A stretch of 64,000 nucleotides of DNA, taken from positions 2,356,001 through 2,420,000 of the forward strand of contig NC_089434.1 in the NCBI RefSeq assembly GCF_026210795.1. Reading direction: 5' to 3'. The DNA is from Rhizophagus irregularis (Eukaryota). The notes under the pieces are model-generated. The model was not told where the DNA came from, made no database searches, and was given only the letters and a program-made list of their open reading frames with translations. Position 1 is the first letter of the stretch. Every line of letters begins with the position of its first letter. Shown here piece by piece: positions 3,590-45,737 of this stretch. Made by a program: the position numbers and the translations under genes.

Positions 3590-5989
3590 ATGGGTCCAAA
3601 GAATGGAAATGCTTCTAATAGCAATATAGATTATGAAGATTCTGACGATCACGATATTTCTGATAATATAGATTTAAACAATGTCAAACTCAATACATTA
3701 TCTGCGAATGAGCAAGAAAAAGAAGGTATTACATATACATTTGTACGTTGTAGGATATGTATTCCATTATTCTAATTATTTTTGGTTTTTCTAATGTTAG
3801 ATGAGAGAATGTGGCAAGGGGTATGAAACTTTGATGAATCCAATGTCCAAAAAATTTCTTGTCATCTTTGATCCGATCCTGTTTAATATTCTATTCTATA
3901 GGTTCAAGCTTTTTTTTGCAATCGGTATACAGAAGCGCAGGAAATTTTTGCAGAAAAAGCAGATATTGATCCTTTATATGCCCTAGGTCAAGGGTGTATA
4001 TCATTTCTAAAAGGTAAGTTGATTAACCTAGTTATCATTACATTTATTAGTATTGTTTTTTAACATTTATTTCTTTATTTAGCGGTAACAACTTTTAACG
4101 AGCAGGATATTTCTATTGCAATTAAACAACTTGTTTCTGCAGAATCCTTAGCTAGCGCACAGATAGGAGCCTTTAAATCGCAATCAAGTATAGGATCAAG
4201 TTTCGGAAAGTTTATATCCAATTTAAATTACTTTGGAAATAGTAACAAGAATCAACAATTTATGTCAAATGGACAATTAAGAAGTACTGTTATTAAGGCT
4301 GAATCATTATTGTTGATAGCTCTTATTCAATTACTCCAAGAAAGTATTATTAGTTATGTAAAAGCAGGGTTGAACTTAAGACGAGGTAAATTAAATTATT
4401 TCTTATTTATTTATTTATTCTCTTTATTCATTGAATTTATACTACTAGGTTATAAAAACTACGAAATTGTGTGGAATGAAATTAATAAACCTGGCTTCAA
4501 TGTATCCGTGGATTATCATACTAAAGGGGGTGTAGAGTTTGGGTCGGTAATTTTTTGATGTAATTATGTTTTTATGTTGGCCAGATCTTTTTATATTTAT
4601 TAACATAATTTTGTTTATAATCTTTAGTTATGGAACATGTAATCTTGTACTTTCATTTATGCCTGGAAAAATTATAAAAATTATATCTGCTATAGGTTAT
4701 AGGGGGAATAAAGAATTAGGTATAGAATTACTAAACGCATCTTTAAAAGGAAGAGGGATAAGGTCGCCATTGGCATCTCTCTTGTAAGTTGTTGATACAT
4801 AAATTTCTATATTGCTACTTGACTTGTATGTTATTAATGTTCTTATGGACTGCAGATTTGTGACATCTTATACAATGCTGACTTCTTTTTCACCATCTAC
4901 TTTGGGCCCAGATAATGTATTTAATCCATATAAATATGTGGCATGAAATTTCATATTTATAATTAAGGTTTAATTCTTAAAATTGTTATACGTTTAGATA
5001 CCGAAAGCTGAAGAATATATTCAAGATGCTTTGAAACAATTTCCCGGATCTGATTTTTTTACTTTTTTCGCCGGCCGTAATCTCCGGCTCAAACGTGATT
5101 TGGATGCGTCTACCGAAGCATTCATATCAGTAAATCACAACCTAAAAGAAGGTTTTGGTGTCGAACTGAGACGTTTATGTGACTATGAATTGGGAATGAA
5201 CTACGCGATGACTTTACAATGGGGAAAAGCTGCACAATGTTTTGACACGCTTGCAACAGAGAACTATTGGAGTCCCGCGTTTTTCCGTTATTTTCAAGCA
5301 GCTTGTCTAGAAATGCAGGGGAAAAAGAAGGAAGCGATAGCTTTATACATAGAAGTTCCAGGTTTATCTGTTCGAAAATTTGGTGGTCGTACTATTCTAG
5401 TAGAACAGTATATTACACGTAAAGTAAAAAATTATATGGCGAAAAATTTTGAAAATACATTATTACCGGGTTTGGAGATTTTACTTATATGGAATAGTTT
5501 TGCATGTATGAAGAAAGAAGATTTGATCCGTTGTTTAGATATTGTTAATTCAAAATTGGACACTTTAAACAATAGCAATATAATTGATTCACAATGTATG
5601 CTTCTTCTTATCAAAAGTTCTATATTGAACCAGCTTCATCGATTTCAAGAAACGAATCAATGTCTCAGATGGATACTTGATCATAATGGTGACATAGTTG
5701 ATGATAAATTTATTGAACCATTCGCATTCTGGGAAATGGGAGTTGCCGCTTTTTTAAACGAAAATCTAGAAAAGGCTAAATTAGTATGGGAAGAGACTGC
5801 TAATTTTAATGGATATGAATTTGAATTTAGGTAATATGTAAAAAAAAACAAAAACAAAAAAAAAATTTCAAGCAAATTTTGTTTAACCATTCTTTTTATT
5901 ACAGGCTTGCAATGCGATTACATTTGTCATTAATGAAATTAAATGACATGCTTCCTGATAAAAAGAAAAAATCAAGAACTTTTATATAA
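3590..5989 (+). CDS. TTC39/IML2-family tetratricopeptide-repeat protein, about 9 exons (approx. 3590-3725, 3801-3820, 3902-4013, 4083-4385, 4449-4541, 4628-4783, 4856-4916, 4998-5830, 5904-5989)
   Basis: GT-AG introns join ORF pieces with family-typical motifs: SYVKAGLNLRRGY, GGVEFG..G.CNLVLSFMP.KIIKII.AIGY.G.KELG, C.YELG, YWS.AFF.Y, PFA.WEMG, GYEFE.RL.MRLH. Confidence 0.88.
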
Positions 5990-24579: not shown

Positions 24580-27500
24580 ACTGGTCAAAAACTAGGCAAA
24601 CGTGGCATAGTAGCCTTTATCTTTATTAAATTTATTTGAACTTTACAATTTACAAAAAATAAAAAGAAAAATATAAAAATAAAACTAACTAAAAACAAAG
24701 CTATATAGTCTCCTAAGAAAAAATAAAGTAAAAAATTAATCTAAAAAGAAAAATTGCATTACACTAAATTTCCCCAGATCTTCCCCCTTGAATATATTCC
24801 AACCAAAGTAGAAGCAACTATGCTAACAAAATGACGAATAGTGCGCCCACTATAAAAATCGACACTCCATCCTGCAAAAGCTGTTATTAAGTAGCATCAT
24901 TAGACGACCCATAAAACCTGAAAAGTGATTAAACCAAGGCAAACCATATTTTATCGAGTTCTTCAACCAATCGGTTTCGGAGTCACGTGAATCGGGTAGG
25001 GTTGAAGGTGGTAAAGATGAGTAAGGTATGTACGTTGACAATGGCAAATTAGATGGCTTCGAAGTAGTTTTCAACTTATAAGTAATGTTCATTGCGTTTT
25101 CCCATCTACTTTTCTCATAATAATGCGGATTTCAAATTCGTCTTCTGAATTTCTGAATAAAATTGTTATGGATAGCAGCGACAACCTTTATCGCAGAATT
25201 TCTTGGAATAGATAAATCAACAAATAAGTCGATAAAGAGCCTGGATAGACAACCTCGCACAAGGGCATAGGAGGACCAATTTGTAGATGAAAAGGACCAG
25301 CATAAAAGAGAAGTAAGTTTAGTAATAAACGGAGTTGGATCAATATCAGCCAATTTTCCAGCTTCTTGAAGTTTAGAAATCAAATAGCCTTAATAGGATT
25401 GGAGTTTTTGTTGCATAGGTAAGCGACGTCATTTGCACATAAAAAGGTGCATCAAATCTTCCATGCGGTCGATACAGGAACAGCAAGATAATTCGTCTAT
25501 GTATAAATCTGGTCGTGTTCTTTTAAGCTTTTCCAATGTGGGTAATTCGTCCAAGAAAAGTTTGAATTTCAAGGATCGGTGCCTCGAAGCATGTTTAAAA
25601 GTAAAGGAAGCGTTATGAGAGGGTTCGAATTTCAAAGTGAACCAAGTAAGATCCCAGTCAACAATGTAATCTATATTAGATAATAATAAAAAAGTAAAGT
25701 GAAAACGCAATTAATGTAACAAATCACGCATCAACTGCGTTTGGTAATATTGTTTAAGAAGGTGTCTTGGATTGGATTCGCAGACAACATCATTGTCATA
25801 AGTTAAGACAAAATCATGGGCAAAAGCAAGGTCCATTCTAGAAATCAAAATACTGGATGACGCAGTATGAGCAGTATTGGCCAAAGAGTCAGCAAAATCG
25901 TTTAAATAATTGCCAGAGTGAGCTTTAACTTTAACGGGAAAGACAGTCAAGTTCTTAGAGAAGATGTTTCATTCAATGATAGCCCAAAACTCAAAGTTTG
26001 TAGTTTTGTAATAAAGTCGGCTATTTGAATAAACAGAGGAAGAGCAACCTCGAAGGCCATCAATGGCAGTTTGCGAGTCAGTATAAATAGTAACTTCTGA
26101 GTCACGAGAAGATATGGTTAAAACTGCGTAAATAGCGGCAGCTTCAGCTCGAGAAAAAGAGGGATTATCCCAAATAATGCTATGCGCATAAGTAGCAATG
26201 GAGTTAGGAAAGCCAGCATCTAGTACAATTTGCATCTAAGACCAGCCCATGGAAACATCAGGAGTTCCTAAATTAATAAGAGACCTATTAGTGTAAAAGA
26301 TATAACGTGATTCTGCAGAAACAACTAATGGAGAGTTCACAAAAACAGCAGCAGCAGAAGATTCAACAGTGGTAGGAATAGCGGAAGCTGCAGTGGCATC
26401 TGTAGGAGAAGGATCAGAAACAAAATTTAATTTACTATAATAGAGACGGATACCATCTTTAATATCAGCCCAAGTAAAGGGGGGAGGTTACTTCGGAGGT
26501 GGTAGTTTTAATCCGCTCATTTGTAGTAGGCAAAATGAGCGAATGTTATAGAGAGACTGACAGTATATAAAGAGTTAAATCAGCATTCCGTTTTTTGGAA
26601 GGAGGAAGAGGAATGTGAGCAACACAACCAGGATGAGGAGAAAGTTTGATAAGATCGCCTGGCGAGGATTCGCAGTTGGGAGAAATTCAATGAACAATGG
26701 AACAAGTACCACGACCTGCTTGAACCAAAAGTTGTTTACCGAAGATGGGAGAGCCGAGATCATCCAACGTAACAATCCAATTTTTGGTAGTGGGAGGAGA
26801 GGAAAGACAAGGTTCCAACTCATAAAATGAAGAGTCATTCGTAGGCACGATGATAAAATCGTCGAGTAAACGATTATTAGAGTCAGGTATAGTGGTAGTT
26901 TGTTGGATATCTTTGTACCAATAAGGAATACGGCCAGGATAAGGTTGCTTGTCAAAACCTCTCCAAAATCCTGCGATAAATTTCAGCAAGATTTTACTAT
27001 ATATTTACTATAGTTTCGGCAGGGTTTCAACAGTTTCGGCAAATGGGGGTTTCGGTATTTCGGCAAAGTTTCGGCAGGATTTTTAATATGATTTAATATA
27101 GTTTCAGCATTTTCCGTATAGATTTCAGCAGTTATTAAGAAGGTTTCGGCAAGCAACCTTAGGCCAGGATCACGTCTTCCAACCAAGTTGTCATAATAAG
27201 CCTTCCAAGAGATTAAATGAGTCTCTTGAGGAGTAACGAGCTGAAATAAATAAAACAGCTTTCGTTTACGCAGGATAGGAAGATAGGCTTTAAAAGCTTT
27301 AGGCGTCATGCATTTAAATAAAGGAACACGTTCATCTAACAGGGATAAGTTCGGAAGCTTCGAAAGTTGAGTATGAAGCAAACGAAAAAGGGTAGAATTC
27401 AGGAGAGCAATAGTGCATGCGATATAATCCTTCTTAAAGGAAGAAAGAATAGACAATATAGACCAGTCCTTAATTAAGAGAAGAAAAATAGGAATCAAAA

Positions 27501-27720
27501 AATTGTATTGAAGTAAACACAATAAAAGAAGAAAAAGAATTAGCCATTAAAAATAAATTAGTAATATGACAATATCGTTGATGAGCAAACAAATTAATCA
27601 AGCCCAATGCTTGTGATAAAAATAAAATAGGGTTGGGAAGAGAATGAGAAAAATTTGCTTTGTGTTTCACAACAGATCGTATACTTCTTGTTATAAGGTG
27701 ACAGTCAGATTCAGACGACA
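24580..27720 (-). mobile_element. 5'-truncated, degraded non-LTR retrotransposon (post-RT region, RNase H, CCHC zinc finger, 3' UTR)
   Basis: RNase H motifs RAEAAAI, IYTDSQ.AI and KVKAHSGNYLNDFADSLA; LPTLE.L...RPDLY....C..C....EDL.HLF.C; many stops and frameshifts. Confidence 0.88.
26940..27161. mobile_element. 222 bp hAT MITE inserted in the LINE
   Basis: TIR TAAGGTTGCTTG / CAAGCAACCTTA, 8 bp TSD GGCCAGGA. Confidence 0.92.
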
Positions 27721-28871
27721 TGCAAAAATCATCATCAATGGTATTCGCCTCTTTCTTAAGTTAAAGACTCTGGACATTGGTGTCGCATATGCAATTATAA
27801 TAATATTGAAGTTGCAAAAGCATTGGCTCGTACTAGAGATGGAGAATGTCTTTCTTCAGAGTATTTTGACAATAAAAGTCCTTTACAGTGGAAGTGTGTT
27901 AAGGGGCATATATGGACTGCGAACTTAAATAAAATAAAAGATTACAACCAGTGGTGCCCTACTTGTGATGGGCGAAATCCGACTATATTTGATATGAAAA
28001 TTCTAGCACAAAAAAATAACGGAGAATGCCTTTCAGATCAGTATTATGATGCACACACAAAACTTTTATGGCGTTGCAAGAATTTTCATATATGGGAAGC
28101 TCCTCCACTAACTATTCTGAGAGGTAGCTGGTGTCAATACTGTGCTGGTACTGCAAAACTTGATATTGAAATTGCTAATCAAATTGCATTATCGAGACAA
28201 GGCCAATGCCTTTCAGTGGAATACAAGAATATAAGCGCACCACTTCTATGGGCTTGTCAATATAATCATCAATAGTAGTCCTCACTTAGTAGTATAAAAC
28301 ATTCTGATACATGGTGTCCATACTGTGCAAGTATGGCTAAACATACTCTTGATGATGCTAAGCAAATTGCTCTCACTCGGGGTGGTAGGTGTCTTTCAAC
28401 AGAATACAAAAATAATAAATCTCCTTTATTATGGATCTGTAAAAATCGGCATAAATGGTATGCAAAATTCGATAATATTGTGAATAAATGCTCATGGTGT
28501 CCATATTGTAGCATAGTAAGTATAAATGTGAAAATCTATGTCGTCAAATCTTAACAAAATATTTGGGCCCTCTATCAGAAAATCGTAAGCCTGATTTCTT
28601 AAAAATACCAGAGCATTCAATGGGGCTACAACTTGACATTCCTTATTATCACTATGGTTTTGCAATCGAAGTACAAGGAGAACAGCATGATAAATATATA
28701 GAATTCTTTCATAGAGGAAACCTGAATAATTTCATCAGACAGCAAGAGCGGAATCAATTCAAGAAAGAATTATGCGAAGAAAATTGCATCAACCTAAAAT
28801 ATGTCTGGTATTACAAAGATCCACATATAGTTATTCCAGAGTATCTTCGAGAACTGGGTCTTATAGAATAA
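27721..28871 (+). pseudogene. Tandem zinc-ribbon repeat protein with C-terminal PD-(D/E)XK (Vsr/DUF559-like) endonuclease, of the type seen in large DNA viruses
   Basis: Five W.C..GH.W.........WCP.C repeats, then LQLD....GFAIEVQGEQH...FFH.....Q.ER...K..LC....I.L; in-frame TAA/TAG stops, a frameshift near 28516, no introns. Confidence 0.75.
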
Positions 28872-28958
28872 ATATGAAACTTTAAATGCGTGTATTTCAT
28901 TAAAATCCTTATTTTTTCGATATAGTAATTTCATGCTCAGTCCAACCAAATGAGAAAA

Positions 28959-29692
28959 ATGGAGTATTATATATATCATCTTAACGAGACCAAAAATTTA
29001 AAGAATATGAATCACCCTGCAAGTCCTGCGTTTCCTTTTCATTTGTTAATTTGCGGTAGACCAGATAGTGGAAAAACTAATATGATTCTTAATCTTCTTC
29101 TTGGAAATAAAATTCAACGTTTATTTAAGGAAAAGAAAGGGTGCGGTATGTCAAAAATGATGATCTAGTCTTAATCGGAAAGCATATCCATGAACCCAAA
29201 TGGGTATTAGTAAAAAACTGCTATGAAATTTTTGCAAAGGGTCCAAAAGCATATCGAGAGAATGTAACATTTCGTGCGTTAAAAGCAGATGCGATTCCAA
29301 ATATAACTAAGTTCTCACCAGATAGAAACACTGTTGTAGTCTTTGAGGATCTTTGCGCTGAATCAAAAAAAATTCAGGATCGGATTGTTCCATATTTTAT
29401 CAGTGGCCAACATCAAGGTGTATCAAGTATATATGTGAGCCAGAAGTATACACAAACTCCTAAAATTATTCGCGAGAATATCACCCATTTAGCTTTATTT
29501 CGAGGCTCAGGAAGCCGGGACGATATCCATAGAATCGTGCGACAATATACGGATGATCCAAAAAAAGCATCCAAGATTATTGACAAACATTTGCGAGATC
29601 AAAATTTTGTGGTCTTCGATTTTACTAAGGCATTTGACGATCCTCTCGCAATTAGATTAGGTTGAAACACGCCCTTAAAATTGGATGAGTAG
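28959..29692 (+). pseudogene. A32-like (FtsK/HerA superfamily) genome-packaging ATPase, Polinton/Maverick or NCLDV type
   Basis: Walker [14 protein letters not shown], Walker B VVVFEDL, family motif [15 protein letters not shown]...PKIIREN; frameshift near 29135 and a probable TGG>TGA at 29663; no introns. Confidence 0.82.
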
Positions 29693-30019
29693 GGTTCGTT
29701 TCTGCTCTTTCGCATTTATTCTCATGTTATATTATATTCCATATACATAAAAAAAATCATGTGCACATTCTGTTCTGAAACACCAATAAAGAAAAATTTC
29801 TATACAGGCATGTATTACACGCATTAGCCAAACAAACAAATTTTTTACTTATCTTCAAGCAAAAATATTATATGGATCATATGATTAATAGCATACGAAC
29901 TACTTTTATTTCATGCAATTTACATTACACTGCATATTAGTATGTTAAAGAATACGAGATAAACACGTAGATAGATATACATAATTTTTGACCAATCCAC
30001 CGATTTAACCAGTTTAACC

Positions 30020-33000
30020 TAATTATTCTTCTTTTTTCTAGGAGAAGTTTTCACTTATTCGATCTTAGAATCATCATCACTTGATTCGGAAATAGGATTT
30101 GTAATATAAGACATTATACTCTTAGTACTCGAAATAATCATATCCTAATTTTCGAGAATAACATTACATCAATCAATATCTTTATATGTATTCAAACATT
30201 TCATGCAAAAACTTACTCGCATCGTCCACAAGTTTGAGGCGAACTTTGGTAACTCTTTGAAGAGCAAAGCTGGTATTGTTGAATAAGAGAACTTTTTTTT
30301 GAGTTCAAAATAATATACACCAGCAAAGGGCATACACATGCTGTAAATATAAAAGTCATGATCTGTATGGATTTATGAAGAAAATCTGAATTTACTTATA
30401 ATGGAAATATTGATCCAGCCATAGAACTTACTATATATTTGAACGCCGTATACTTTTATTCTTTTAAACTCTTCGAAATTGCCTGGATAGTTGACTTTAA
30501 TAAAGTTCAGTATGATCTTTAGCATCTTGGCAGTTTTATTTCTATCCCCAACATAGTGGGTATGGTCAGGACATGATGGAGATCCTGAAACTTCCAAAGT
30601 TGACACCTCCAAATCAAAATCCACCATTGATATAATTGCGTCAATTTTATTTCCGGTACACCGTCGATCATCATCTCTTAATGATTGGTTCAGCTGATCA
30701 GCAGAGCATTGCAAGGTTGATTCACCCCTGTTGAAACACAAGCCAGCAAAATAAAGTTAATAATAATAGTAATTACTCAACGCGCTAAATTTGACTTAAA
30801 CTTACTACCTACAGTCCAAAAAAACTGATCTTCGAATAGCATGGTAAAGATATGGGAAACAAATTTAATTATGTAATGTCCTTCTGTCTTATTTTCTTTG
30901 AGGCAGTTTCTGCCATTTGAAAATTGTTTCCAACTATAGCAAAGTAGTAGTTCAATGTTAGAACAAAATCAGATTACAGTATATGAAGTACGCAGGATAC
31001 TTGCAATATTTCCATCAAATCTAAAACCCGTTTCCTCCATATTGTATTTCCATTTTCCCGTAGCTTTTCACACTCTATTCTGATTACATCACGTAATTTT
31101 TCCGCGATATTCTATGAAGTAAACATAAATATAAGGAATCACCAACAAATCAAAGTCTAACCTTCTCTACTTACCACATTTTTCAATATACTTTTTATAT
31201 ATTGTTTGACATCATCTGCCCTTCCGTCTTGTTCTATGTCCTGGTCAATCGAAGTTAAAGCGGAAGCAGATTCTGGAGCTAATGATGTTGCATCGGGGCT
31301 AGACGTTAAAAATTCTTCTATTGTTCCAATAATATCACCCCAATGCTTTCTGAAGAAATTTCGTGCTTCTGTTGCAGAAGATTTGGCCGTATCAAGAATA
31401 TTATAACGCATTAGACTGTAAAAAAAAGTTTTCAGCATCTAGGGTATATATATATCAATGGAGTATTCAACAGATGTACATACTCTTGTTTATGTATTTC
31501 TTCAACATATCTTGATGAGCGACGCTATTGCTCCATTTTTGATCTAACGCACATATTCTTGACAATTAGCTTGCAATCGACGGTGATATCAACAGGGGTT
31601 TCATTAGGAGATCATCTTCAGAAGTATCATCTTTATAACCATGTTCTTTACATACGAAAGAACTTGATGAAGTATCATACGAAAAATTTTGATGAGGCAG
31701 AGTACGTGGCTCGGAACTATTAATTTTGTTTATATTACTAGTCATTTCCGCACTAGACCCTGCGCTTTCTAAGCTTGACGAAAATGGTATTGGTACTCCT
31801 GGTGATGATGATGCGTTCGGTGCTCCTTGTGATGGTGATGGTCTTGGCACTCCTTGTGATGATGAGGAGGAGGATGGCGTGTCTTTCGTGGTTTTGGCCT
31901 GTTTACACAAAAAAATAGAAAAATTTTGAGAAGAATTCATGGTAACAAATCCTTATAATCATAGGGATGCATCTTATACCGACTTTCTTAGCTGAACCAA
32001 CTGACTCTTTATTCTGTAGATGTAATAAATCATTAAAAAATGGTTGCATAAAATTCATTGCAACGTAAGACCTTATCAATATCCTAACCTTTTTTGGAAG
32101 AGATAACTTTTTCCGCTTTGGTATACAGGCAGGCATGAAATCATCGTCGGACTGAATACAAATTAAATTACCTTTATCAGACAGCCAACATTTTGTAGAT
32201 TCTCTTATAGCAAAAAAATGCTTACCAGTGCTTTTTCCAGCACTGACTTTCTTCTATCTTCAATTGCGGTGAAGTTCATGTTTTTACTTTGGTCAAGAGC
32301 ATAATTTAACTAGTATAAAAGAAAGTATTAGGTTTAAATTTTGTGTTCATGTAAGCAACAGCCAAAAAATCCTTACATCTTCAGATTCAATCTGAAATAA
32401 TTTCAGTTCATTATGAGTTTTGACATATTGAATTTTTTCATGTAGATTTTGAGTATTGCGATCATTCCAGAACTTCACAACTTCTGGAGAGCGTTTAATA
32501 TCCTAGAAACTCAAGAACATAACAATCGTTAATGGTTAATTTATTACAACCCAAATTGCGTCTATTATAAGATACAAAACATGACAGACTGCAACGAACT
32601 CAAAAGGATCAATACTGGGCGACTCAAAAGGACACACCAGTGTGTCATAGCAATTGATTCAAAAGGACCTGCCAAAAGCCAATTGACTCAAAGGGACAAT
32701 TTTACCCAATGTGCGGAACTCAAAGGGATCCATAAAGCTACTAGGGTGGGCTTTTGACCTGTCAACTGAATCTAATCATAAAAAAACATACCTGCCAATT
32801 ATTAAGTAGCCCCTGTGCCTTTTGTCTATAAATGTTGTCTTTGTCGTTAATGATAATTTTCTGAAGTAAGGACTTAAACGCACCGTGTTCTTGATTGCAG
32901 TCATTTAAAACCAAGTTTTCAGACCTCCATTCTAAAAAATTAATAAGTGACCACCGAAGTGGATCGATCTCCTGAAAGTAGCTGTTGTCGATCTCCTGTA

Positions 33001-33040
33001 AGTTGTTTGAAATTTGTTCCATGGAAATTTTTGTATACAA
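30020..33040 (-). pseudogene. Multi-exon (~10) fungal gene with a C-terminal restriction-endonuclease-like domain, probably inactivated
   Basis: Minus-strand GT-AG introns link ORFs; G.KIDAI......EVSTLEVSG.P......HY.GDR.K.AK.LK....KVYG.QIY motif; apparent premature TAA near 31567 and 30057. Confidence 0.62.
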
Positions 33041-33672
33041 GTTAACGATCGGTGAGAAAAAATTCTTTTATGTACAGTATATGAGAAATCAACTGTCGTA
33101 CAGATTGATATGATGATCCCGTTCACACGTGTTAATTCTTTTGCTTGACCGCTTATACTAAGGCAGGTAAAACGCTATATAATATGCTTCAGTCAAATGT
33201 AATAAAAATAGCCATCCCTCCAGAGCAATATACATATCAGTAAATGCTATTCTGCTAAAAATTATTCAGCTAAATGTTGCAAGGAAAAAAAATCGAAATA
33301 TTTTGGGGATCGATTTCTTATGTGTGAAATTTATTTTGGAGGAATCTTACCACACTATTGTGTGATGTTTTTGTCATATGGTCACGTGCTGACCTGTTTA
33401 CGTTTTTTATTATGTTTCTGAGGGACTTAGTTTTTTTTTACTAGCCTGATCTCTATTTGTCACTGCATTATATATCACCTGTACTATCACGTTTAAAGTA
33501 CTATTTATATTGTGACAGGGTAGTGTGGTAAGATTCCCATTATTTTGTCGCACAAGCAGTCACACAGAGCTACAGCTGATTTGGGCGGTGTATCACTTAT
33601 TACATCATATGCACTTTAACGAGGATCGAAAACATGCTAATTTATGTCACACATGCCAACATGCATTGGCCT

Positions 33673-34837
33673 TAAAGCTCCGAACGGGTCGGTTTGGTCC
33701 GGATTATAGACAGTTTGGATTAGAGCCGAAATCTGTAAGAACCGAACCGAAAAACCAGCAGTTCAGTTCGGTTTAATCCGATTTTTTATAAAAATGTGAA
33801 AAATCGAATAGCCGGCCATCTAGTGATCATACAAAGTCGAGCCATATATCATTGGATTCGTCTCGACGAGACGCGTCGAATGGTGGTAAGCTCATGTCTC
33901 TAGCATCGATAGATCACACGTTAGCCCACGCTAAATGATTTATAAATAATTGGAATTATCAAGCTATCTATCGGTGCTAGAGACATGATCTTAGCACCAT
34001 TCGACGCGTCTCAGTGAGATGAATCCAATGAATATAAATTCGTCCGTGTATGATCACTGGATGGCGAAAAACATCAAGTTTCGCATTTTTTTAAAATTTT
34101 CAAGTGTTAAAAATTAAAAATTCCGATACATGAATTTATTCGTCGTCCAATGGTCGTACAAATATGAATTAGGACTCATTGGATTCGTCTCGATGAGACG
34201 AGTCGAATGGTGGTAAGATCACGTCTCTAGCATCGATAGATAGCTTGCTAATGCCAATTTTTTATAAATCATTTAGCGTGAATTAAAATACGATCTATTA
34301 ATGCTAGAGACATGATCTCACCACCATTCGACTCGTCTCATCGGGATGAATCCAATGAGTCCTAATTCATATTTGTACGACCATTGGACGACGAATAAAT
34401 TCATGTATCGGAATTTTTAATTTTTAACGCTCGTAAATTTAAAAAAATGCGAAACTTGATATTATTCGCCATCCAGTGGTCGTACACGGACGAATTTATA
34501 TTCATTGGATTCGTCTCACTGAGACGCGTCGAATGGTGCTAAGATCATGCCTTCAGCACCGATAGATAGCTTGCTAATTCCAATTATTTATAAATCATTT
34601 ATCGTGAGTTAACGTGTGATCTATCGATGCTAGAGACGTGATCTTACCACCATTCGACGCGTCTCGTCGAGACGAATCCAATGATATATGGTTGGACTTT
34701 GTAGGATCACTAGATGGCCGGCTATTCGATTTTTCGCATTTTTATAAAAAATCGGATTAAACCGAACTGAACTGAACTGAATTTTGAGCCGGTTTCGGAT
34801 CAGTTCCCCGGTTTAGCCCGAACTGTTCGGAGCTTTA
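33673..34837. mobile_element. hAT MITE whose interior is a ~1 kb near-perfect palindrome
   Basis: TIR TAAAGCTCCGAAC / GTTCGGAGCTTTA, 8 bp TSD ATTGGCCT. Confidence 0.92.
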
Positions 34838-34934
34838 ATTGGCCTTAAGGCGCTTCGCATGGCTAGACAATATATTATTTTATTAAGACAATATTCGGGA
34901 TCTAGGTCAAGGACTGATCTGGAAAATTCGGCAG

Positions 34935-35541
34935 GTGATATAAAAAATGAATTGCGGTATCGGAATTCACTTTTTTATATTGATTTTATATATAAAAAGT
35001 GAATTGCGGTATCAGAATTCACTTTTTTATATTGATTTTATATATAAAAAGTGAATTGCGGTATCAGAATTCACTTTTTTATATTGATTTTATATATAAA
35101 AAGTGAATTACGGTATCGGAATTCACTTTTTTATATTGATTTTATATATAAAAAATGAATTGCGGTATCGGAATTCACTTTTTTATATTGATTTTATATA
35201 TAAAAAATGAATTGCGGTATCGGAATTCACTTTTTTATATTGATTTTATATATAAAAAATGAATTGCGGTATTGGAATTCACTTTTTATATTGATTTTAT
35301 ATATAAAAAGTGAATTGCGGTATTGTGATTCACCTTTTTATACGATTTTAATATAAAAAGTGAATCGCAATATTTCAAAAAAAAAATGTTTTGCACCATT
35401 TTTTTTTGATATTTTAATAAAAATCCTGAAATTTTTCAGGTTTCAGTTCAGGTCGGGTCAAACAGATAATCTGATATAACTTGACCTGACCTGACCTGAA
35501 AAAAAATTTCAGGCCAGGTTTATTAATTAACCTGACCTGAC
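34935..35541 (-). mobile_element. Partial hAT MITE with 52 bp tandem repeat (family of 44780-45737)
   Basis: AAAAAGTGAATTGCGGTATCGGAATTCACTTTTT units, GACCT repeats and terminus CCATTCAGAACTCTA. Confidence 0.75.
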
Positions 35542-35920
35542 CTGATCCATTCAGAACTCTAACGCCAGATTTTACATTTTTTCATTAAAAAAACTTTTTT
35601 TTTGTTTAATTTAAGGCGGCACAAAGCTAATAAATTGGTTCTCATAACCCGACCGGGTCAATGAAGTGTAACCCAAAAATTTTTATTTTATATATATACA
35701 TATAATTAACCAATAAAAATGCTCAATCTAATATCATGTGATAAACCAATTTTATTAGCATACATGTACGCATATAACGCATTCAATCATCAATCATGCA
35801 ACGCATTTTTTTTATAGTGTATTTTATATGAGTTTCATTTTATTAAAAATAAAATTCATTCATGCAATGCAAACACCAGGCCCGTATTAACGAACCTATA
35901 ATAACGAACCTATAATAACA

Positions 35921-38900
35921 TTACAAAGTACAAGCCAAAAAAATAAACCTAAACTTTTTTTGCTTCCCTTTGTCTTTATTACCACCTTGTTTCCATTTCA
36001 GACGTTTCTTTGAGACAATAGTATCGCTATTACAGCCACTACAATGTGGGTGTTCATCTTTTGTTACTCTATTGACGTCTAAGCTTCCACACTCAATGCA
36101 AACATCTGGGTAAATTCCGGCTGAGTAGTATGGTTTTTCAATTGGCGAACTACAGGACCATGAATCATTAACGAAAACTCTTGAAAATAACTCATATATA
36201 GAATCCTCAGTAGCATTATCAAGCTCTTTATCTATATCTATTTCAAATTCTTCATTTCTATTATCTAAGTCTTCTGGTTCGTTCTGTTCATCATTATTAG
36301 AAGCATCCTCCTTTTCCATATTTTCTTGATCATCCTCACCATTGTCTTCTGTAATATCATCACATATGTCTTGTTTTGGTGGAATAGCTATTGCCAAATC
36401 ATACGTATTATAAAATGACATACCGCAAGTGTAGAGTATTGTATCCAAAAATCCTTGAAGTATTGTCTTGTCTTTTTCAGAAAGTTTCTTTGCACTGAAT
36501 AAAAGACAAGGCTTCTCACATTCAACACAGCTTACAGTAATACCAACATTTTTTGCATGTACAGCAGAAGGGCAAAATGGCATAGTATGTTTTACTTTTG
36601 TTGTTTTCATCTTTTCTTTTGTTTTTTTGACATTCTTAAGCGAAGGTCTATGATCTTCCGTTGTTTGTTTACCATACAACTCTTCAAATGATTTATAATG
36701 CAAATCATCTCCAGGTACTGGATCCAGAAGTCTATGCAATTGTTCAAAATCTTCAGGCAAACAACAAGGAAGACGGCAGATGGTGCAAGTAGATTCACCA
36801 CATTTTTTGATTGTAAAAGAGTAATGTCTTGCAGTACAACAATGTTCTATGAATTCTTGTAGAAACAACTTCAAACAAAGGTTGTTAATTTAGTTTCTTT
36901 TTATGCAGGTATAAACTCAATTGATATTTAATACTTACCCTTTGTTTTATATGTTCTGCAGTATGGTCCTCATGGGTAACGCTATCATCCACAAGCTGAA
37001 TTGTTTCCCAGAATTTCTCCATTTCTATTTCTGATGCTGCAGTAAACGTTTTAAAGGGTTAGCTTTTAAGAGATTGGTGGTTGAATATATCATTAACCAA
37101 ACAGATCGGAGATTGAAGACTATCAATGAGATCTTCTTTCAAGGTAGGATTCTCCATGGCAATTTTGCGGATTTCATTCATTGTGCCACATTTGCTTATT
37201 AATTTCTCTGATTCATCATTCATTTCAGCTCGCATCAAGCCAACACTTTGCAATCCTAAATTTAAAATTGACATTATATGCTCAACAGGATTTTTCCATG
37301 AATGTTGTGGAGGAGTTTGAACGGCAACAAAATAATCAAGATCTAATGCAAGAAAAAGGCAAATATATGAAAGTTGGACACGGGCATATGTGCATCGGTG
37401 ATCTGGTCCACCATCAGTGTAGAGGCATAGTACAGGCTTATCAACAAGCTGTTCTTCAAGAAGTATACTATATAATTCTGTTGCATGTCGAAGAGGTGAA
37501 GAAGGCTGAAAGATTGGATCCTTTAACCCAATGCATACCTTTCCTGCATAGAAATCAATATTGATTGATTCAGGTATATCACATATCATTGCTACACTTG
37601 GTATTATTCCTGTTTTAGTGAAATCATGATCAGCAACTATGAATGTAGTGTCTTTACTAAGGTTGCTTGCCGAAACCTTCTTAATAACTGCCAAAACCTA
37701 TACGGAAAATGCCAAAACTATATTAAATCATATTAAAAATCCTGCCGAAACTTTACCGAAATGCTGAAACTCCCATTTGCCGAAACTGCCAAAACCCTGC
37801 CGAAACTATAGTAAACATATAGTAAAATCTTGCCGAAATTTATCGCAGGATTTTAGAGAGGTTTTGGCAAGCAACCTTAGTCTTTACTTACTACGACCTT
37901 CTTTCCTCTTTCTACTGCAACAACAGGAAATCCGGGTTCTCCAACTTTGCAACGGTGCTTGTCATCCAAAAAGACTAAATTTGTAATTTTGCGAAATTTA
38001 ACAGCAAATTCCTTTTCATAGCGAAACAATGCCGATGCATAGTGGATATCAGGATGAGAAGCCCGTAATTGCCGTGTTTGAACCATAAATTTTAAAGGTA
38101 AAAGATCAGTGAATTGTAAACTACTAAGTCGAGTTGGGTTTTTAGACCAAAATTGTAACTGCAACCATTGTGCACTAGGGATTGGTGTTTCAGGTGGGCA
38201 TTCACGCTCTATTTGGTGTAAAAGATCATTTACTGAGATTGCAGTAGCAAGATGTACAATTGTATCATGTCTACGTTCATCTACAGCAGTTACAGCATCT
38301 GCTGCCTTTCCTTCAAGAAACTGAGCTGCGATTTTCCAGAAAGTATCATATTTGCTAGGTTTTCCACTATTATGTTCACGTAGATTAATGGTGATATCTG
38401 GATCTCCAAGCTCCAAAAACATTTTAACACGTTCATTAACTCTTGCTTCATTTGCTGTTTCAGCCGCTGAGACATCTCCTGTTAGCATTCTATAGATTGT
38501 TCGAAATGATGATAGCTTGGCCTTTGGAAGAAGCAATTCACATGTACGTAGGTAGTTTATCCGCATTGTTCGTGTATGATAACGAGGTGCATTAGCTTGT
38601 AGTTGACTTACAATCTGTTTATTCTCTTGCAAAATCTTTATTTCAGTAGCTTGTTCATCGATTTTCCATATCAAGATTGCATTAAAAGCATTGTTTCCTG
38701 AGTTGAATTAGTACTCTCCAATTTCGTAGGTAAATGCATGAGATAAGCCCTGAATGTAACGCATTCTTTGCCTACATTAATTTATTCATTAATATCATAT
38801 ATTAAATATTTTGAGAATATTATTTTTTTTACTTACATAGGATCAGTTGGCAAGTATTCTTCAATATCAACTGGTTCCCATGGTAGTAAATCGATGAGAG

Positions 38901-39850
38901 ATTGTTCAAGATGATAATATTTATTCTTATCAATAGGTGTTATCCAAATATTCTTCTTATAAACTTTTATTGTTGTTACTTGATTAATAGTTCGTATAGG
39001 AATTTCTGATGCATGATTCTTAGCAGTAATATCACGTTTATGTTGCAGAAATATAATATAATTCGAAATAACAATAATGAAATCATCAAGTACATCACGG
39101 AGCCAATTAAAGTTTTCTCTTAAGATCCATGATAATGTAACATATGGAGCAAGAGCTTGACAATGCAAGTTTAATTCATTTGCATCAAAGGGTTTTTGTG
39201 ATTGCTTGTATGATTCTGGATTTGCGCGACTAAAAAACTCAAGGAAAAGCTTAGGTATGTGATAATTTCGTTCTTCTAGTTTCTTATGATCATGCATATC
39301 GATATACCAAATTGTTTCTGTTAAGCTAACAATAAATTCCTTTCCTTGCGTGTCAGCACATAATTTAGTGGGCCACCCACTGCCATGACTGTGGATCCAA
39401 TCAACAATATCATTACGCAATTTTTGCTTACGATTTACCTTTTCTGACTGTGGAAATGTTGGCAAATGCAACTGGAATTTGTGTGCATTTTGCATCAAGA
39501 TTGTAAATCCGTTTGATTGTACTTGAGTAGCTTCAGTATCATCAGATTTTAGTCGATAGTGTAAATGTATTCCTATATTTCTGGTAAGTTCTATGATATT
39601 ACAGTTAATACTGACTTGAATTGCAATGCTGGTTGGTATTTCACTTAATTCAACACGTTCTATTTTTTCAGAACTTGTTACGGCAATATTGCATTCAGAG
39701 GATAGTTTCTTATTAACTAGCTTTGTAAAAAAATCTTTTATTGACATTTCACAAGAAATAGGATGGATGTACCATCCATGGAGTATTCTTATCCCTTTAG
39801 AGATGCGAGTATTTACAAGTAGCATGTTCAAAAAAAAGGTATTTGTAAAA
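35921..39850 (-). pseudogene. Zator/TP36-like DDE transposase with introns near 38772-38834 and 36872-36938, interrupted by a MITE
   Basis: Motifs FLDDKH, ADHDF, YTDGGPDH and PPQHSWKNPVE; Cys-rich C-terminus; stop codons and the insertion at 37658-37879. Confidence 0.75.
37658..37879. mobile_element. 222 bp hAT MITE (inverted copy of 26940-27161)
   Basis: Same TIRs, 8 bp TSD GTCTTTAC. Confidence 0.92.
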
Positions 39851-41375
39851 GATTTGGAGAAAATACATCTTTTCGCGTTTTTTTATATTTAATAATGTAT
39901 CGCGAATTTGCTATAATTTTATTTCTATTAGGGGCGTAGTCTCAAAAAGGAAAGCTGAGTAATTGACCGATTTCCAATATAATAGTATATGCAAGACTCA
40001 TATTACTTTATATAAAATAACAAAAAGGGGTTATATTTTCATTTTTTTTTCTATATATAATATTTTATCCAAATGATTTCCCACGCCAATTCACCAAAGT
40101 AATTCTGCTTAACTATAAACTGTTCATTACCTGAATGAAAACTCGAAAATTAACTTGATATATATAAATATACAAATATATTGATTTATTATAATAAAAG
40201 TTTATACGGAATATAGTTAATAAAGAATCAATATTAATAATATTAACATGAAATTTTTGATTGGACGTCAGATTGTGGAACACATGACTAAATTTTATTG
40301 GTTAAAAAATTTTTATCCTTAGAAATAAAAATCCGGACGGCCGGGTCAAATCAAATAAATTTTGTTATGAGAACCAATTTATTTATTTTGTGCCGCCTAA
40401 TGAAAAACGTTAGGTTTAACATTTTTAACTAAAAAAAAAATTTTTTTATATATCTTTTAATAAAAAATATCAGATCTGACGTTTTTCATTAAAAAAACTT
40501 TTTTTTTATTTAATTTAATGAAAAACATTAGATTTGATATTTTTAGTTAAAAAAAACATTATTTTATGTTTCTTTAACTAAAAAAAAAGATTTTTCAATG
40601 AAAAAACATCAGATTTGACATTTATAATTAAAAAAAACTTTTGTTATTTTTTTTTAATGAAAAATGTCAGGTTTGACATTTTGATTAAAAGAAGACGTAT
40701 TTTATTATTATATTTAATGAAAAACATCAGATTCAGATTTTGGCATTTTTTATATATAAAAACATCAAAATGTTTTTTTTTAACCCAAAATATATCGAAT
40801 CAACAGATTGGGTCAGGTACCCAATTGTAATTAACCTGACCTGAGATCAGGTTATTAAATTTGCTACTTGACCCGAATTTTTTGGATCAACCTGTTAGGT
40901 CATCCGATCTGTCAAGTTAAATTCGATGTTCTAGCTCAAGTATAATTTGGAAAGAAATTATAGTTGAATATCAACTATCTTTTATAAGATGATTAAACTT
41001 AATGCTTTTTTAATATTATTGAATAGCATTAGAAATGCAAAGAATATAACATCAGCTTCATAATACTAGTTGATATAAAGATGTCAAAAAATTCAAGAAT
41101 ATTGTTAATTGTGATTGAAAAAAACTTTTATATCAGTTTAATGAAATTATTTTTTTGAAATATGATATGATGAGAATCTGAAAATTATGATTTCTTAGAA
41201 GATATATAAAGTTAAAAAATATATTGATTAAAAAGACTTTAATCTTTTAATATATATATATGGTTTATATAATAACTCAATATCATGTAGCTAGTACTTG
41301 AATTTGTAATTGTATATAATTTATATGTTTTTAAAAAAATGAATTACTCAAAAGATACAATAAAAAATTCTTTAA

Positions 41376-41826
41376 TTCGTGATCCGTATAATAAGTAGTG
41401 AAAATCATTATTTAAATTCGGGGAAAATAAAAAAATGTATTTTTTGCGATTATCTCGTGACTCAGTAATCCAATTTCAATGTACAATTTTTTATCGTGTA
41501 GCTCTCCACGCCTTCTGCAAAATAAAAAAAAGATCATTAAAATTGGACCAATAGATCGTGAGATAATTACAAAACCGATTTTTTCAGATAATATTGTGAG
41601 GAATTTAGCCACATTCCGAAAAAAATCATTTTTGTATTATCTTACGATCTATTGGTCCAATTTTGATGATCTTTTTTTATTTTGTAAAGGGCGTGGAGAG
41701 CTACACAACAAAAAATGTTTATCAAAATTGAATTACTGGATCACGAGAAAATCGCAAAAAAAATGATTTTTTTATTTTCCCCAAATTTGAATAGTGACTT
41801 TCACTACTTGTTATACGGATCACGAA
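41376..41826. mobile_element. Palindromic MITE flanked by TTAA
   Basis: TTCGTGATCCGTATAATAAGTAGTGAAA / TTTCACTACTTGTTATACGGATCACGAA; the interior is also inverted. Confidence 0.82.
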
Positions 41827-42680
41827 TTAATTTTTAATTACAGTAAAGATAATTATACTATTATATTATGTAATTCATATAATTCATAATTGTATATATT
41901 TAGAAGAACTAAATAACTGATTAATAACAAATACTCTTTCTAAATTAAAAATAATCTTATTTAATATCACTAAAACCTTTGCTTATTTTTCTTATTTGTA
42001 TTATTTATTTTTCTTTTATAATTTGCATTTTTCACATATTCTTACTTATTTGGATTTTATTTGTTAGACATATTTCTTTATAATAAACATATATTCTGCA
42101 AAAATTATTTATATTAACATCAATTAATATTTTTATTTTAATTAATAAAGTAATGGGCACTTTTAAATAGATTAGGGACATATCAAAAATTAACTGATTT
42201 TTTTTAATTAGTAGTAGTCTTAATCTTACTTCCCACCTGATTGAAATTTGATTGACTAAAAAAATTATTCAGTAGTTATTATTAAATATTAATATCTATA
42301 TATATAATAAAAAAAACTGTTATATTTAAATTACCTATATAAATAAATTTAAATTGTGTAATATTACTTTTATTGGCACTTTATTACATGATGTTACATA
42401 AACTTCTAAAAAAGAAAATTTTACTTCTAACAAAAATAGGGATTTTAGTTTCACAAATATTTTAAAAAAAAAATTTTTGTGCCAATTGTATAATTCTGAT
42501 TAGAATTAAAAATATTGCCAAAACTGTCCTATTTAGCACTTTATCACATAATTATGTAAACATCTAAAAAAGGAAATTTTACTCTTACAAAAAATAGAAT
42601 AATTTTAGTTTCACAAATATTTCAAAAAGAAAATTTTACACTGATTATATAATTCTAGCCAAAATTAAAAATATTGCCCA

Positions 42681-44065
42681 CGTTGAATCCCCCTATTCCC
42701 TCTGTCATCAATTTACAGAGTTGCCATATCGAATAGGCATTCTTATGGTCAAACGAACGAACAAACGAACAAATGAACAAACGAACAATTAAGCAAACAA
42801 ACAAGCAAATAATCAACGACATAATTAACAAACAACATAATCAACGAACAACATACAACAACATATAACGACAACATTCTTGGTTCACAACATAAATAAC
42901 GTTAGCAATATAAAACATCAAATGATATAAAATAAAATTTAACTTCTCTAAATTTTCCTCAATTTTTATCCACTTTACCTTTAATTTTAAACTTTGATAG
43001 CTCTCGCTACGAAATATTCTATTTATTACAACTTTAAAATTACGATAATTCTTTTTACAAAAGTGTATATTTTATTCATCTTATAATTTTCATTTTATTC
43101 AATTAAAATTAACAAAGCGAACATTAATTAAAGTTTAGGGCAAACCTATTACCTTTAATAATATTATACTTTATTAACAAATAATTAAATTTAACTATTC
43201 TAAATTACATTGTGGATGATATGATCAATAAATTCTATGATTTCTCGGATGATGTGGAATTACTTCGAATTCCGCTCTCTATTTATACAAACTTTCTATT
43301 CTAATATATACTATCTTTTATGTTCTTTTTATATGTTATGCTATCTTTCGATATACTATCTTTAAATATGCTATCTTTAAATATGCTATCTTTAAATATG
43401 CTATATGCTTCTATTTTTAATATGTTATCTTTTATGTTCCATCTTTTTGATATACTATCTTTTTATATTCTCTTTTATATTATCTTTTTATATTATCTTT
43501 TATATTATCTTTTATATTATCTTTTATATTATCTTTTTATATTATCTTTGTATTATCTTTTTATATTATCTTTGTATTATCTTTTTATATTATCTTTTTA
43601 TATTATCTTTGCATTATCTTTTTATATTATCTTTTTATATTATCTTTGTATTATTTTTTCTTGCTGTTTAATATGTTATTCTTCCATCTTTCATATTATT
43701 TTATGTTCTTTAATCTTTCTGACATTATTTTATATGTTCTTTTAATTCGCTATCTTCCTACTTTATGTGTTTTGCTTATAATCCATCTTTTGTGGCTTAT
43801 AATTATCCTTTCTAATTGTTCTTATTGTCAAAGATTGCTAAGCCGCAATTGATCGACTAATTATTCTATTGGTTTTTTATTAATCATCCAATAAATATTG
43901 CATCATGTAGATCATTACTTTTCTTAAATGTTTATCCTTTTCAACTAATCATTTATCCATCCACGCCAATTCATAATTAATTTGTTCATTCTTAATACTT
44001 GGCAATTATATTCGGTGATTGAATTTTATCATTTTTTCATGCTTGATATTTGACCGTTTATAACG
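42681..44065 (-). mobile_element. ~1.4 kb unclassified dispersed repeat; second copy inverted at about 49130-50123 plus 52725-52954
   Basis: Extended reverse-complement similarity; includes AACG/AACA and TTATATTATCTT simple repeats. Confidence 0.75.
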
Positions 44066-44106
44066 TTGTAAAATAATAGATTACAACTATAATTATTAAT
44101 TATGAA

Positions 44107-44440
44107 AAAATGTATTTGTAACAGCCTGTTACATATTTTATTTGTAACATTCTTTTTTTATTTTTTTTTAATAATAAATTTAATGTATTTTACAAATAAA
44201 ATTTTTATATGCAAAATTTAATTTGGAAAACTTTTACTTAATGTACTTAAGACAGTTTCATAGACAAAATTTTAAGTTATAAGCAGTTTCTTAAAATTTT
44301 TTAAAAAATTCTTTTGTCTTAGTTACACGACTAATCTTTTGTTTTTGTTTACATTACGCCTGATCTTAAATTTTAATTGGATAAAATTGGGGTTGTTACA
44401 AATAAGATGCGTAACAGGCTGTTACAATTAGATTTATCCA
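44107..44440. mobile_element. MITE-like inverted repeat
   Basis: TTGTAACAGCCTGTTAC..TTATTTGTAACA / TGTTACAAATAA..GTAACAGGCTGTTACAA. Confidence 0.6.
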
Positions 44441-44779
44441 TTAATTATTATTATTCAATTCAATAGAATTGTACAGATTTTCATAAATTGATATTTTATT
44501 AACCATAGTAATAACACATAATTGATATAATAAAGTGGAGTAAAAAATGGCATAAATAAATATTTTGTAAAAAAAGTTTAAATAAAACTTATAAAGTAGA
44601 TTAAAAATGAAATTTATAGAAAATTTATTAATGATATTATTAATTAATACATGATCAAAAATGTTAAAACAATAACATATTTATTGAATATAAGGTTATA
44701 TCAATCATAGGAATCTTCATTGATTGGTAAAAATGGCCATTACATGACCCATTTTTATCCAATTATTCAGTCCTATAAC

Positions 44780-45737
44780 TAGAGCTCCGAATGGGTCAGG
44801 TCAGGTCAGGTTAATTGATAAACCTGACCTGAAATTTTTTTTCAGGTCAGGTCAGGTCAGGTTATATCAGGTTGTCTGTTTGACCTGACCTGACCTGAAA
44901 CCTGAAAAATTTCAGGACTATTTTTATTAAAGTATTGAAAAAAAATGGTACAAAACGTTTTTTTTTTAATATAATATTATGAAAAAAATGTTTTCGCAAC
45001 GTTATTATTGAAATATTAAAAAAAAAACATTACGAAACATTTTTTTAATATAATATTATGAAAAAACGTTTTCGCAACGTTATTTCTCGAAATATTGCGA
45101 TTCAACATTTTTATATTAAAATCATATAAAAAAGTGAATCCCAATACTGCAATTCACTTTTTTATATTGATTTTGTATAAAAAAAGTGAGTTGCGGTATT
45201 GCGATTCACTTTTTTATATTGATTTTATATAATAAAAGTGAATCGCAATATCGCAACTCACTTTTATTATATAAAATCAATATAAAAAAGTGAATCGCAA
45301 TACCGCAACTCACTTTTTTTATATAGAATCTATATAAAAAAGTGAATCGCAATACCGCAACTCACTTTTTTTATATAGAATCTATATAAAAAAGTGAATC
45401 GCAATACCGCAACTCACTTTTTTTATATAGAATCTATATAAAAAAGTGAATCGCAATACTGCAACTCACTTTTATTATATAAAATCAATATAAAAAAGTG
45501 AATCGCAATACTGCAACTCACTTTTATTATATAAAATCAATATAAAAAAGTGAATCGCAATACTGCAACTCACTTTTATTTTATAGTAGAATCAATAGTT
45601 TCAGGTCAACAGGTCAATCAGGTCAGGTCAATCTTCATACCTGACCTGAATTTTTTTTAAAAATCTCATACCTGACCTGAATTTCAGGTCAGGTCAGGTC
45701 AGGTTACCTGAATTTGGCTGACCTGTTCGGAGCTCTA
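44780..45737 (+). mobile_element. hAT MITE (~960 bp) with internal ~52 bp tandem repeats
   Basis: TIR TAGAGCTCCGAA / TTCGGAGCTCTA, 8 bp TSD CCTATAAC. Confidence 0.92.

Follow-up and report, generated by a model that had tools for sequence, protein, structure and literature searches.

Gene layout and lesions of the locus

The window, which is the whole stretch of 64,000 nucleotides analyzed here from Rhizophagus irregularis (contig NC_089434.1, positions 2,356,001 to 2,420,000), is AT-rich and repeat-rich. Translation of 27721-29700 in three frames showed two reading frames on the plus strand, which are 78 bp apart and have no introns. The order along the strand is a zinc-ribbon-repeat protein, a nuclease-like domain, and a P-loop ATPase. 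The features of the locus are as follows.

24580-27716, minus strand: high-copy, RNase H-bearing retroelement, 5'-truncated at 27716 and abutting the nuclease (left end approximate, placed by eye)
27717-28871, plus strand: zinc-ribbon-repeat nuclease pseudogene with its 5' end lost (translation, Pfam, PHROGs, model and fold searches, junction)
28512-28871, plus strand: C-terminal domain of the nuclease, with a predicted Vsr/I-Bth0305I-like fold
28872-28949, plus strand: spacer of 78 bp, conserved with locus L001
28950-29692, plus strand: A32-like (FtsK/HerA superfamily) genome-packaging ATPase pseudogene (translation, Pfam, fold matches)
33549-33671 and 34846-34906, no strand assigned: candidate segment of about 190 bp, also present in L001, about as far downstream of the ATPase there, and split in the window by a presumably hAT-like insertion

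Both genes at 27717-29692 are pseudogenes. The nuclease frame is broken by a stop codon at 27757-27759, by two stops at 28273-28278, and by a frameshift near 28512, where it carries 5 bases that L001 does not have. In the ATPase, a single-base deficit near 29138-29141 in comparison with L001 and L002 shifts the frame, and a stop codon follows at 29663-29665. In addition, its Walker A motif reads GRPDSGKT, compared with GGSDSGKT in close relatives, and GQH stands in place of the conserved GRH motif; the roles of these two motifs are those that we take them to have in ATPases of this type. Intact relatives, as in L001 and L010, are encoded in one uninterrupted frame of DNA, and the window copy is predicted to yield no working protein. 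The preliminary description of this DNA had presented a co-oriented, closely spaced, intronless gene pair in an intron-rich genome. The orientation, the short gap, and the lack of introns hold, as does the presence of introns in the surrounding host DNA (exons of an IML2/TPR39 gene lie at 4064-5834), but the genes are not intact.

The junction between the retroelement and the nuclease lies at 27716/27717, 4 bases to the left of the start at 27721 that was first given. Retroelement copies in three sequencing runs diverged from the window past 27716, and a contig from another organism (run X17) continued the nuclease frame upstream of 27717, where its 28 loose bases, read by hand, gave the preceding portion of a ribbon repeat. 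Runs X8, X9, and X13, from three studies, each included a contig identical to the window over 27578-28198, thereby indicating that the junction and the first nuclease stop are real and not assembly errors. These results bear out the earlier statement that the left side is cut by this element, there called a LINE. The retroelement is likely of the non-LTR type. Its RNase H match (E = 0.001) was below the Pfam cutoff, and in run X13 its summed contig depth, which is not a copy number, was 870 to 2180 compared with about 12 at 32427-33000, with loose ends at 27716. The missing 5' part of the nuclease and any integrase were absent from the whole window in a profile search of all six frames. Likewise, none of the window's 29 open reading frames (ORFs) of at least 100 amino acids, including the one at 43451-43852, showed a Pfam match to capsid or polymerase families, consistent with the earlier remark that no capsid, polB, or integrase is visible here.

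The ATPase belongs to an A32-type family under purifying selection

The earlier assignment of an A32 packaging ATPase had been coupled with a proposed profile search, and Pox_A32 was indeed the family matched by all 45 aligned ATPase relatives. An intact relative, P0002, was modelled (pLDDT 85). The B204 packaging NTPases of STIV and STIV2 filled the first eleven PDB ranks, and the matches in BFVD were A32, IVa2, virophage, and adintovirus ATPases, all at 9 to 18% sequence identity. When the PDB was searched by sequence, neither the ATPase nor the nuclease had a significant match. The profile and the predicted fold place the element ATPase in the same family as STIV/STIV2 B204 and vaccinia A32, and not with the cellular P-loop families that had been named as the outcome speaking against a viral origin. 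It differs from these proteins in that it is only 12 to 15% identical to them, its window copy is broken, and it has no known cognate capsid.

The search with the ATPase piece gave 167 relatives among 186 candidates. All named relatives among the best 120 of the 167 were from Glomeromycota (Rhizophagus, Diversispora, Dentiscutata, and Cetraspora), and the best named among the matches listed were from R. irregularis, at 91 to 92% identity. A search of 1.84 billion representative sequences gave 1541 matches. Four scans of viral contigs yielded no relative of the ATPase, or of the integrase described below, that could be confirmed, and a scan of prokaryote genomes gave one weak ATPase match (L049, 31% over 69 residues), which was excluded from all counts. 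For strain DAOM 181602, at least eight full-length ATPase accessions, on contigs of six sizes, were named among the 15 of 32 cluster members listed.

We calculated dN/dS for 45 ATPase pairs, of which 16 were saturated and 29 computable. The ratio was 0.06 to 0.19 in 28 of the computable pairs and 0.39 in the remaining one, the window against L002. The ATPase family is therefore under purifying selection across many copies. P0513 is a distant A32-like protein of 892 amino acids, whose C-terminal part resembles a Ulp1-type cysteine protease by eye.

The nuclease carries zinc ribbons and a predicted Vsr-like domain

The N-terminal part of the nuclease consists of W-C-x2-C repeats that match DUF4379 (PF14311) in Pfam. 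Five repeats are left in the window, the intact relative P0355 has six, and the integrase-fused form described below has one. The C-terminal domain of the window copy had no Pfam match, and weak Pfam matches were found in 5 of 12 aligned domains. However, the domain matched PHROGs families annotated as homing, HNH, or intron-encoded nucleases (E = 3e-58 for P0355), and its model (pLDDT 87) matched the folds of Vsr (Z = 9.4), I-Bth0305I (Z = 9.1), and NGO0050 (Z = 8.5). The closest folds were those of giant-virus zinc-ribbon nucleases, with TM scores of 0.75 to 0.82. Among 12 sequences, E7, E53, G56, and Q58 were invariant and D42 and H59 nearly so, residues that we take to be catalytic. On the basis of the PHROGs matches and the predicted fold, we identified the domain as Vsr-like. 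It is predicted to have the Vsr/I-Bth0305I fold with conserved acidic residues and a histidine, and the earlier reading as a zinc-ribbon plus Vsr-like nuclease is thus supported, in its second half at the level of predicted fold.

Two known groups of proteins resemble this nuclease. The homing endonuclease I-Bth0305I (PDB 3R3P) is similar in predicted fold and in the PHROGs homing families, and the giant-virus zinc-ribbon "restriction endonucleases" have the same arrangement of repeated ribbons followed by a C-terminal nuclease. Unlike Vsr-like homing endonucleases, the element nuclease does not sit in an intron or intein; its gene is next to that of a packaging ATPase in a fungal element. Unlike both groups, it has a one-ribbon version that is fused to an integrase in the fungal elements.

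Relatives link the ATPase to the nuclease and to an integrase

The neighborhoods of other copies were examined in a metagenome scan. The scan gave 48 ATPase loci with about 124 kb in total, in which only three loci, all of one family, exceeded 7 kb. At least 400 bp of upstream flank was available at 22 loci, and in 17 of these a related nuclease lay just upstream of the ATPase on the same strand (12 of 17 when near-identical loci were merged); L006, L015, L025, L035, and L045 were the five exceptions. The two genes are thus repeatedly linked, whereas the viral reading had been said to fall if they were never linked at other loci. A multi-ribbon nuclease lay directly 3' of the ATPase in 5 of the 32 loci that extend 400 bp or more downstream. 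In L006, a Uma2 nuclease (684-1562, E = 5e-22) occupies the slot upstream of the ATPase.

Upstream flanks of 1 kb or more were available at 13 loci, and an integrase was found in 9 of these flanks (7 of 11 merged). It carries an RVE domain (E = 2e-9), and in a single frame of about 550 residues this domain is joined to one ribbon and the nuclease. The closest nonfused relatives of the integrase have about 330 residues and are 41 to 49% identical. The D, D, and E residues are present in one subfamily. Another subfamily (L012 3461-5119; P0136-P0139, P0147, P0418, and P0425) lacks the third acidic residue at the aligned position and retains a full-length frame and the fused nuclease. In R. irregularis assemblies, eight sets of consecutive accessions pair a member of the integrase cluster with one of the ATPase cluster, an adjacency taken from the numbering. 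Gene models that merge the nuclease and the ATPase were found in R. clarus (P0242 and P0351) and R. irregularis (P0251 and P0290). In the window's own subfamily no locus extends far enough upstream to reveal an integrase, and L001 has about 150 bp before its nuclease frame. We found no description of the integrase-nuclease fusion in the titles and opening lines of abstracts screened or in the readable papers.

Of the neighborhood genes named in the preliminary description, an RVE integrase was thus found, and a jelly-roll capsid, pPolB, and terminal inverted repeats (TIRs) were not found on these short contigs. An ORF at 13928-14485 of L012 resembles a tyrosine recombinase by eye and had no matching Pfam or PHROGs match. 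Intronless leucine-rich-repeat (F-box-like) genes lie 3' of the ATPase or the integrase in L023 (600-1741), L037, L040 (346-1413), P0162, and P0246, a position that suggests cargo genes.

The nuclease and the ATPase have distinct histories

We constructed an ATPase tree of 55 rows, which has no named outgroup and excludes near-duplicate loci as well as those with fewer than 150 aligned residues. The window ATPase fell in a clade with L001, L002, L003, L041, and L029 (support 99/91), and every row of this clade with a known upstream neighbor had the free-standing nuclease. The clade is nested with the integrase-linked L004, L005, and P0004, and both groups together had a support of 99/96.

The DNA identity between the window and L001 was 67 to 75% along the nuclease and 85 to 96% from about 28820 through the ATPase. 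The nuclease had a dS of 1.59 and the ATPase one of 0.35, and therefore selection alone does not account for this step in identity. A nuclease more similar to the window's is found in L033 (82.5%), yet the L033 ATPase is only 72% alike. Similarly, L030 and L033 have an identical nuclease domain with ATPases that are 81% alike, and P0242 and P0351 have nuclease domains that are 99% identical with ATPases that are 88% alike. These discordant similarities indicate that the nuclease moves among ATPase backgrounds. It is swapped independently of the ATPase, in a possibly homing-like manner for which the identity step and the conflicting trees are indirect evidence. Homing is preferred as the cause on account of the fold and family matches of the nuclease, and the swap could also be ordinary recombination between copies. 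At the four downstream-type loci whose junctions were inspected, no duplicated end of the ATPase was seen. We found no description of an independently swapped nuclease of this kind in the searchable literature.

Other genes and termini of the related elements

Three loci, L012, L013, and L017, are about 99% alike over 6.5 kb. In these loci, a coiled-coil ORF, an ORF with a CCHC knuckle, and an overlapping ORF with a D-S-G/A aspartic-protease-like motif diverge from the integrase. The nearest atlas clusters of the CCHC ORF were Gag or caulimovirus coat proteins, with scores of 0.85 to 0.89 that are below 0.9 and serve as a lead only. The aspartic-protease-like ORF had nothing significant (best PDB match E = 0.5, none in Pfam). 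The coiled-coil ORF recurs in a second subfamily, in L010 (E = 6e-17), and the gene beyond the protease-like ORF recurs beside an R. irregularis ATPase in P0241 (E = 1e-12). Because this neighboring gene is also found beside the ATPase in R. irregularis, the Gag/protease-like block looks internal to the element. No description of such genes in an element family of this kind was found in the readable papers, and one figure of the partly accessible PMC8502044 may show them.

Neither the window nor the approximately 124 kb of related loci contained pPolB, a major or minor capsid, a cysteine protease, or a TIR, which is weak evidence of absence since only three loci exceed 7 kb and the contigs fall short of the usual length of such an element. 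A double jelly-roll major capsid protein and a penton had no Pfam match in the ORFs scanned in the window and the longer loci, whose flanks are incomplete, and a recurring downstream ORF had no named atlas match (scores below 0.9, leads only). An adenovirus-type cysteine protease was found in none of the loci examined; one family has the aspartic-protease-like ORF. No TIR or target-site duplication was found around the pair or at the ends of L001, L012, L013, and L017, loci that are not known to span both ends of an element. Core genes of Nucleocytoviricota (PolB, RNA polymerase, VLTF3, MCP, and D5) were absent from the window's ORFs and from the scanned ORFs of the loci, a search that decayed or distant genes could escape. 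The segment of about 190 bp at 33549..34906, which the window shares with L001, may be sequence of the element's right end or a dispersed repeat.

Identity of the element

Taken together, the locus is probably the decayed remnant of an integrating DNA element of the Maverick/Polinton type from arbuscular mycorrhizal fungi. The preliminary description had proposed a relic of an endogenous double-stranded DNA virus or a Polinton-like element, and it is the latter form that the integrase linkage and the many copies support. We compared the locus with the defining features of the class as given in the accessible parts of PMC4028283 and PMC6431247. The expected A32-type ATPase is present, and the RVE integrase is present in relatives (the 9 of 13 loci above) and absent in the window, where the left side is cut. 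Since the polymerase, capsid, and TIRs could not be shown on the short contigs, formal membership in the Maverick class is unproven and is one that we infer. The placement of the ATPase with those of Mavericks is taken from bioRxiv 10.64898/2026.06.19.733378, which states it for the ATPases of Glomus and Rhizophagus.

This kind of element is already known from these fungi. In the portions of the sources available, Glomus intraradices (R. irregularis) is among the early Polintons without a detectable MCP (PMC7805220), Maverick expansions are reported in Glomerales, with recent ones in R. irregularis (PMC11952901, PMC8647823), and A32-like ATPases of Glomus and Rhizophagus from fragmented assemblies are related to Maverick ATPases (bioRxiv 10.64898/2026.06.19.733378). 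As far as these and PMC11296320 describe them, the Mavericks/Polintons of this fungus (Polintoviricetes) share with our loci the host group, an RVE integrase with an A32-like ATPase, many copies, and the fact that no capsid was found. They differ in that no pPolB or TIR was found in the loci here, and their accessible text makes no mention of an integrase-ribbon-Vsr fusion or of a free-standing multiribbon nuclease beside the ATPase. A Rhizophagus PolB has been placed among adintovirus-like ones (PMC8502044; preprint 10.1101/697771), and the element bearing it is named in bioRxiv 10.1101/2022.05.25.493380. The legend of Fig. 5 of PMC8502044 lists labels for retroviral Gag-like and retropepsin-like genes, which recall the ORFs of L012, L013, and L017; the labels may or may not belong to the Rhizophagus element, and that element may or may not be of the family described here. 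The portion of its supplement examined gave no match for Rhizophagus, and that figure or the rest of the supplement may already show the integrase/nuclease architecture. The gene layout of the relatives may be undescribed, although the element kind is not.

We infer packaging, integration, and homing as the working of such an element. In relatives that still function, the A32-type ATPase is predicted to drive the element DNA into a particle, and the neighboring RVE (DDE) integrase to insert the element into the chromosomes of the host. The position immediately 5' of the ATPase carries a zinc-ribbon and Vsr-like nuclease, which is joined to the integrase or, as in the window, stands free with several ribbons. 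The free-standing form would likely be a selfish homing-type endonuclease, which cuts related elements and is copied across by repair. In the window copy, the retroelement has cut the left side, and the remaining two genes have since decayed.

Several other origins were weighed. An origin from a giant virus (Nucleocytoviricota) that had integrated into the fungal genome would agree with the best folds of the nuclease, which are marseillevirus, pithovirus, iridovirus, and klosneuvirus proteins, several of them named as ribbon plus nuclease too, and with an asfarvirus-like endogenous region reported in R. irregularis. However, the same source, as far as it was accessible, detected no nucleocytovirus A32 in five strains (PMC10640383), no giant-virus core gene was found in the scanned flanks, and the RVE integrase beside the ATPase in relatives together with the many dispersed copies favors a small, integrating, Polinton-like element over a large double-stranded DNA virus, so that a giant-virus origin is quite improbable. 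It is very improbable that the nuclease-ATPase pair is a small mobile unit moved by the nuclease without an integrase. The DNA identity to L001, L003, L004, and L005 does stop within 1 base of the ATPase stop codon, and the genes downstream of the ATPase differ among copies, but the integrase-linked L004 and L005 end alike, so this end marks a variable gene slot. Moreover, the similarity of L002 and L026 runs 114 bp further, and the pair is not flanked by repeats. Host genes, whether domesticated or ordinary, would agree with a family that is under purifying selection and present in several Glomeromycota genera; the lesions refute this for the window copy, and the lack of introns, the many copies, the changing neighbors, and best matches to viral families make it extremely improbable.

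The window could also be a fragment of a derived integrase element that is free of jelly rolls, has kept the A32 ATPase, and would use a Gag-like protein and a retropepsin-like protease instead of a capsid. The ORFs diverging from the integrase, the Gag-like lead for one of them, the recurrence of the coiled-coil ORF in a second subfamily, the apparently internal position of the block, and the G. intraradices Polinton without an MCP (PMC7805220, as accessible) point this way. However, the Gag-like and protease-like ORFs occur in one family of nearly identical copies, the protease-like ORF matched nothing significantly, the window has no such ORF, and a divergent capsid gene could sit beyond the short contigs; we consider this origin unlikely. 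A fuller version would be an active Maverick-derived lineage that has lost the jelly-roll capsid while its A32 motor stays under selection, with retroviral-type Gag and protease as particle genes, an integrase joined with a zinc-ribbon Vsr-like nuclease, and a free-standing homing version of this nuclease that parasitizes the lineage by jumping between copies. Such a lineage is unlikely but conceivable; if it exists, fungi would harbor a DNA virus-like element housed in a retroelement shell.

Under the preferred reading as a Maverick/Polinton-type fragment, the locus is a dead piece of an already reported kind of element, and its value is that of a pointer. The Glomus/Rhizophagus Polinton has no known capsid, and its ATPases come from fragmented assemblies, as far as the accessible parts of PMC7805220 and bioRxiv 10.64898/2026.06.19.733378 state. 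Purifying selection on the ATPase across many copies makes sense if something is still packaged. The marker genes (the integrase-nuclease, the free-standing nuclease, the ATPase, and the Gag-like block) can retrieve complete elements from chromosome-level assemblies. They thereby make two questions testable: what, if anything, is the capsid of fungal Mavericks, and whether a key plant symbiont harbors active DNA viruses.

Other features of the window

A multi-exon gene without an informative Pfam match lies on the minus strand at 29900-33100. Its status as part of the element was unsupported, as no locus shares the region beyond 29806. A second, slightly different copy was found in contigs of three runs, and the gene seems to be repeated. 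Further to the right, a 1.16-kb insertion with terminal inverted repeats at 33673-34837 is flanked by an 8-bp target duplication (33665-33672 and 34838-34845), by whose length we assume it to be hAT-like; L001 has the empty site. The region 34938-45585, which is likely a DNA transposon, has long inverted arms, which carry 52-bp tandem repeats and are separated by about 10 kb. Between the arms lies a multi-exon gene on the minus strand (35921-39882) with no informative Pfam match. A 223-bp element occurs in two inverted copies that are 93% alike, one at 26940-27162 within the retroelement and the other at 37657-37879 within this gene.
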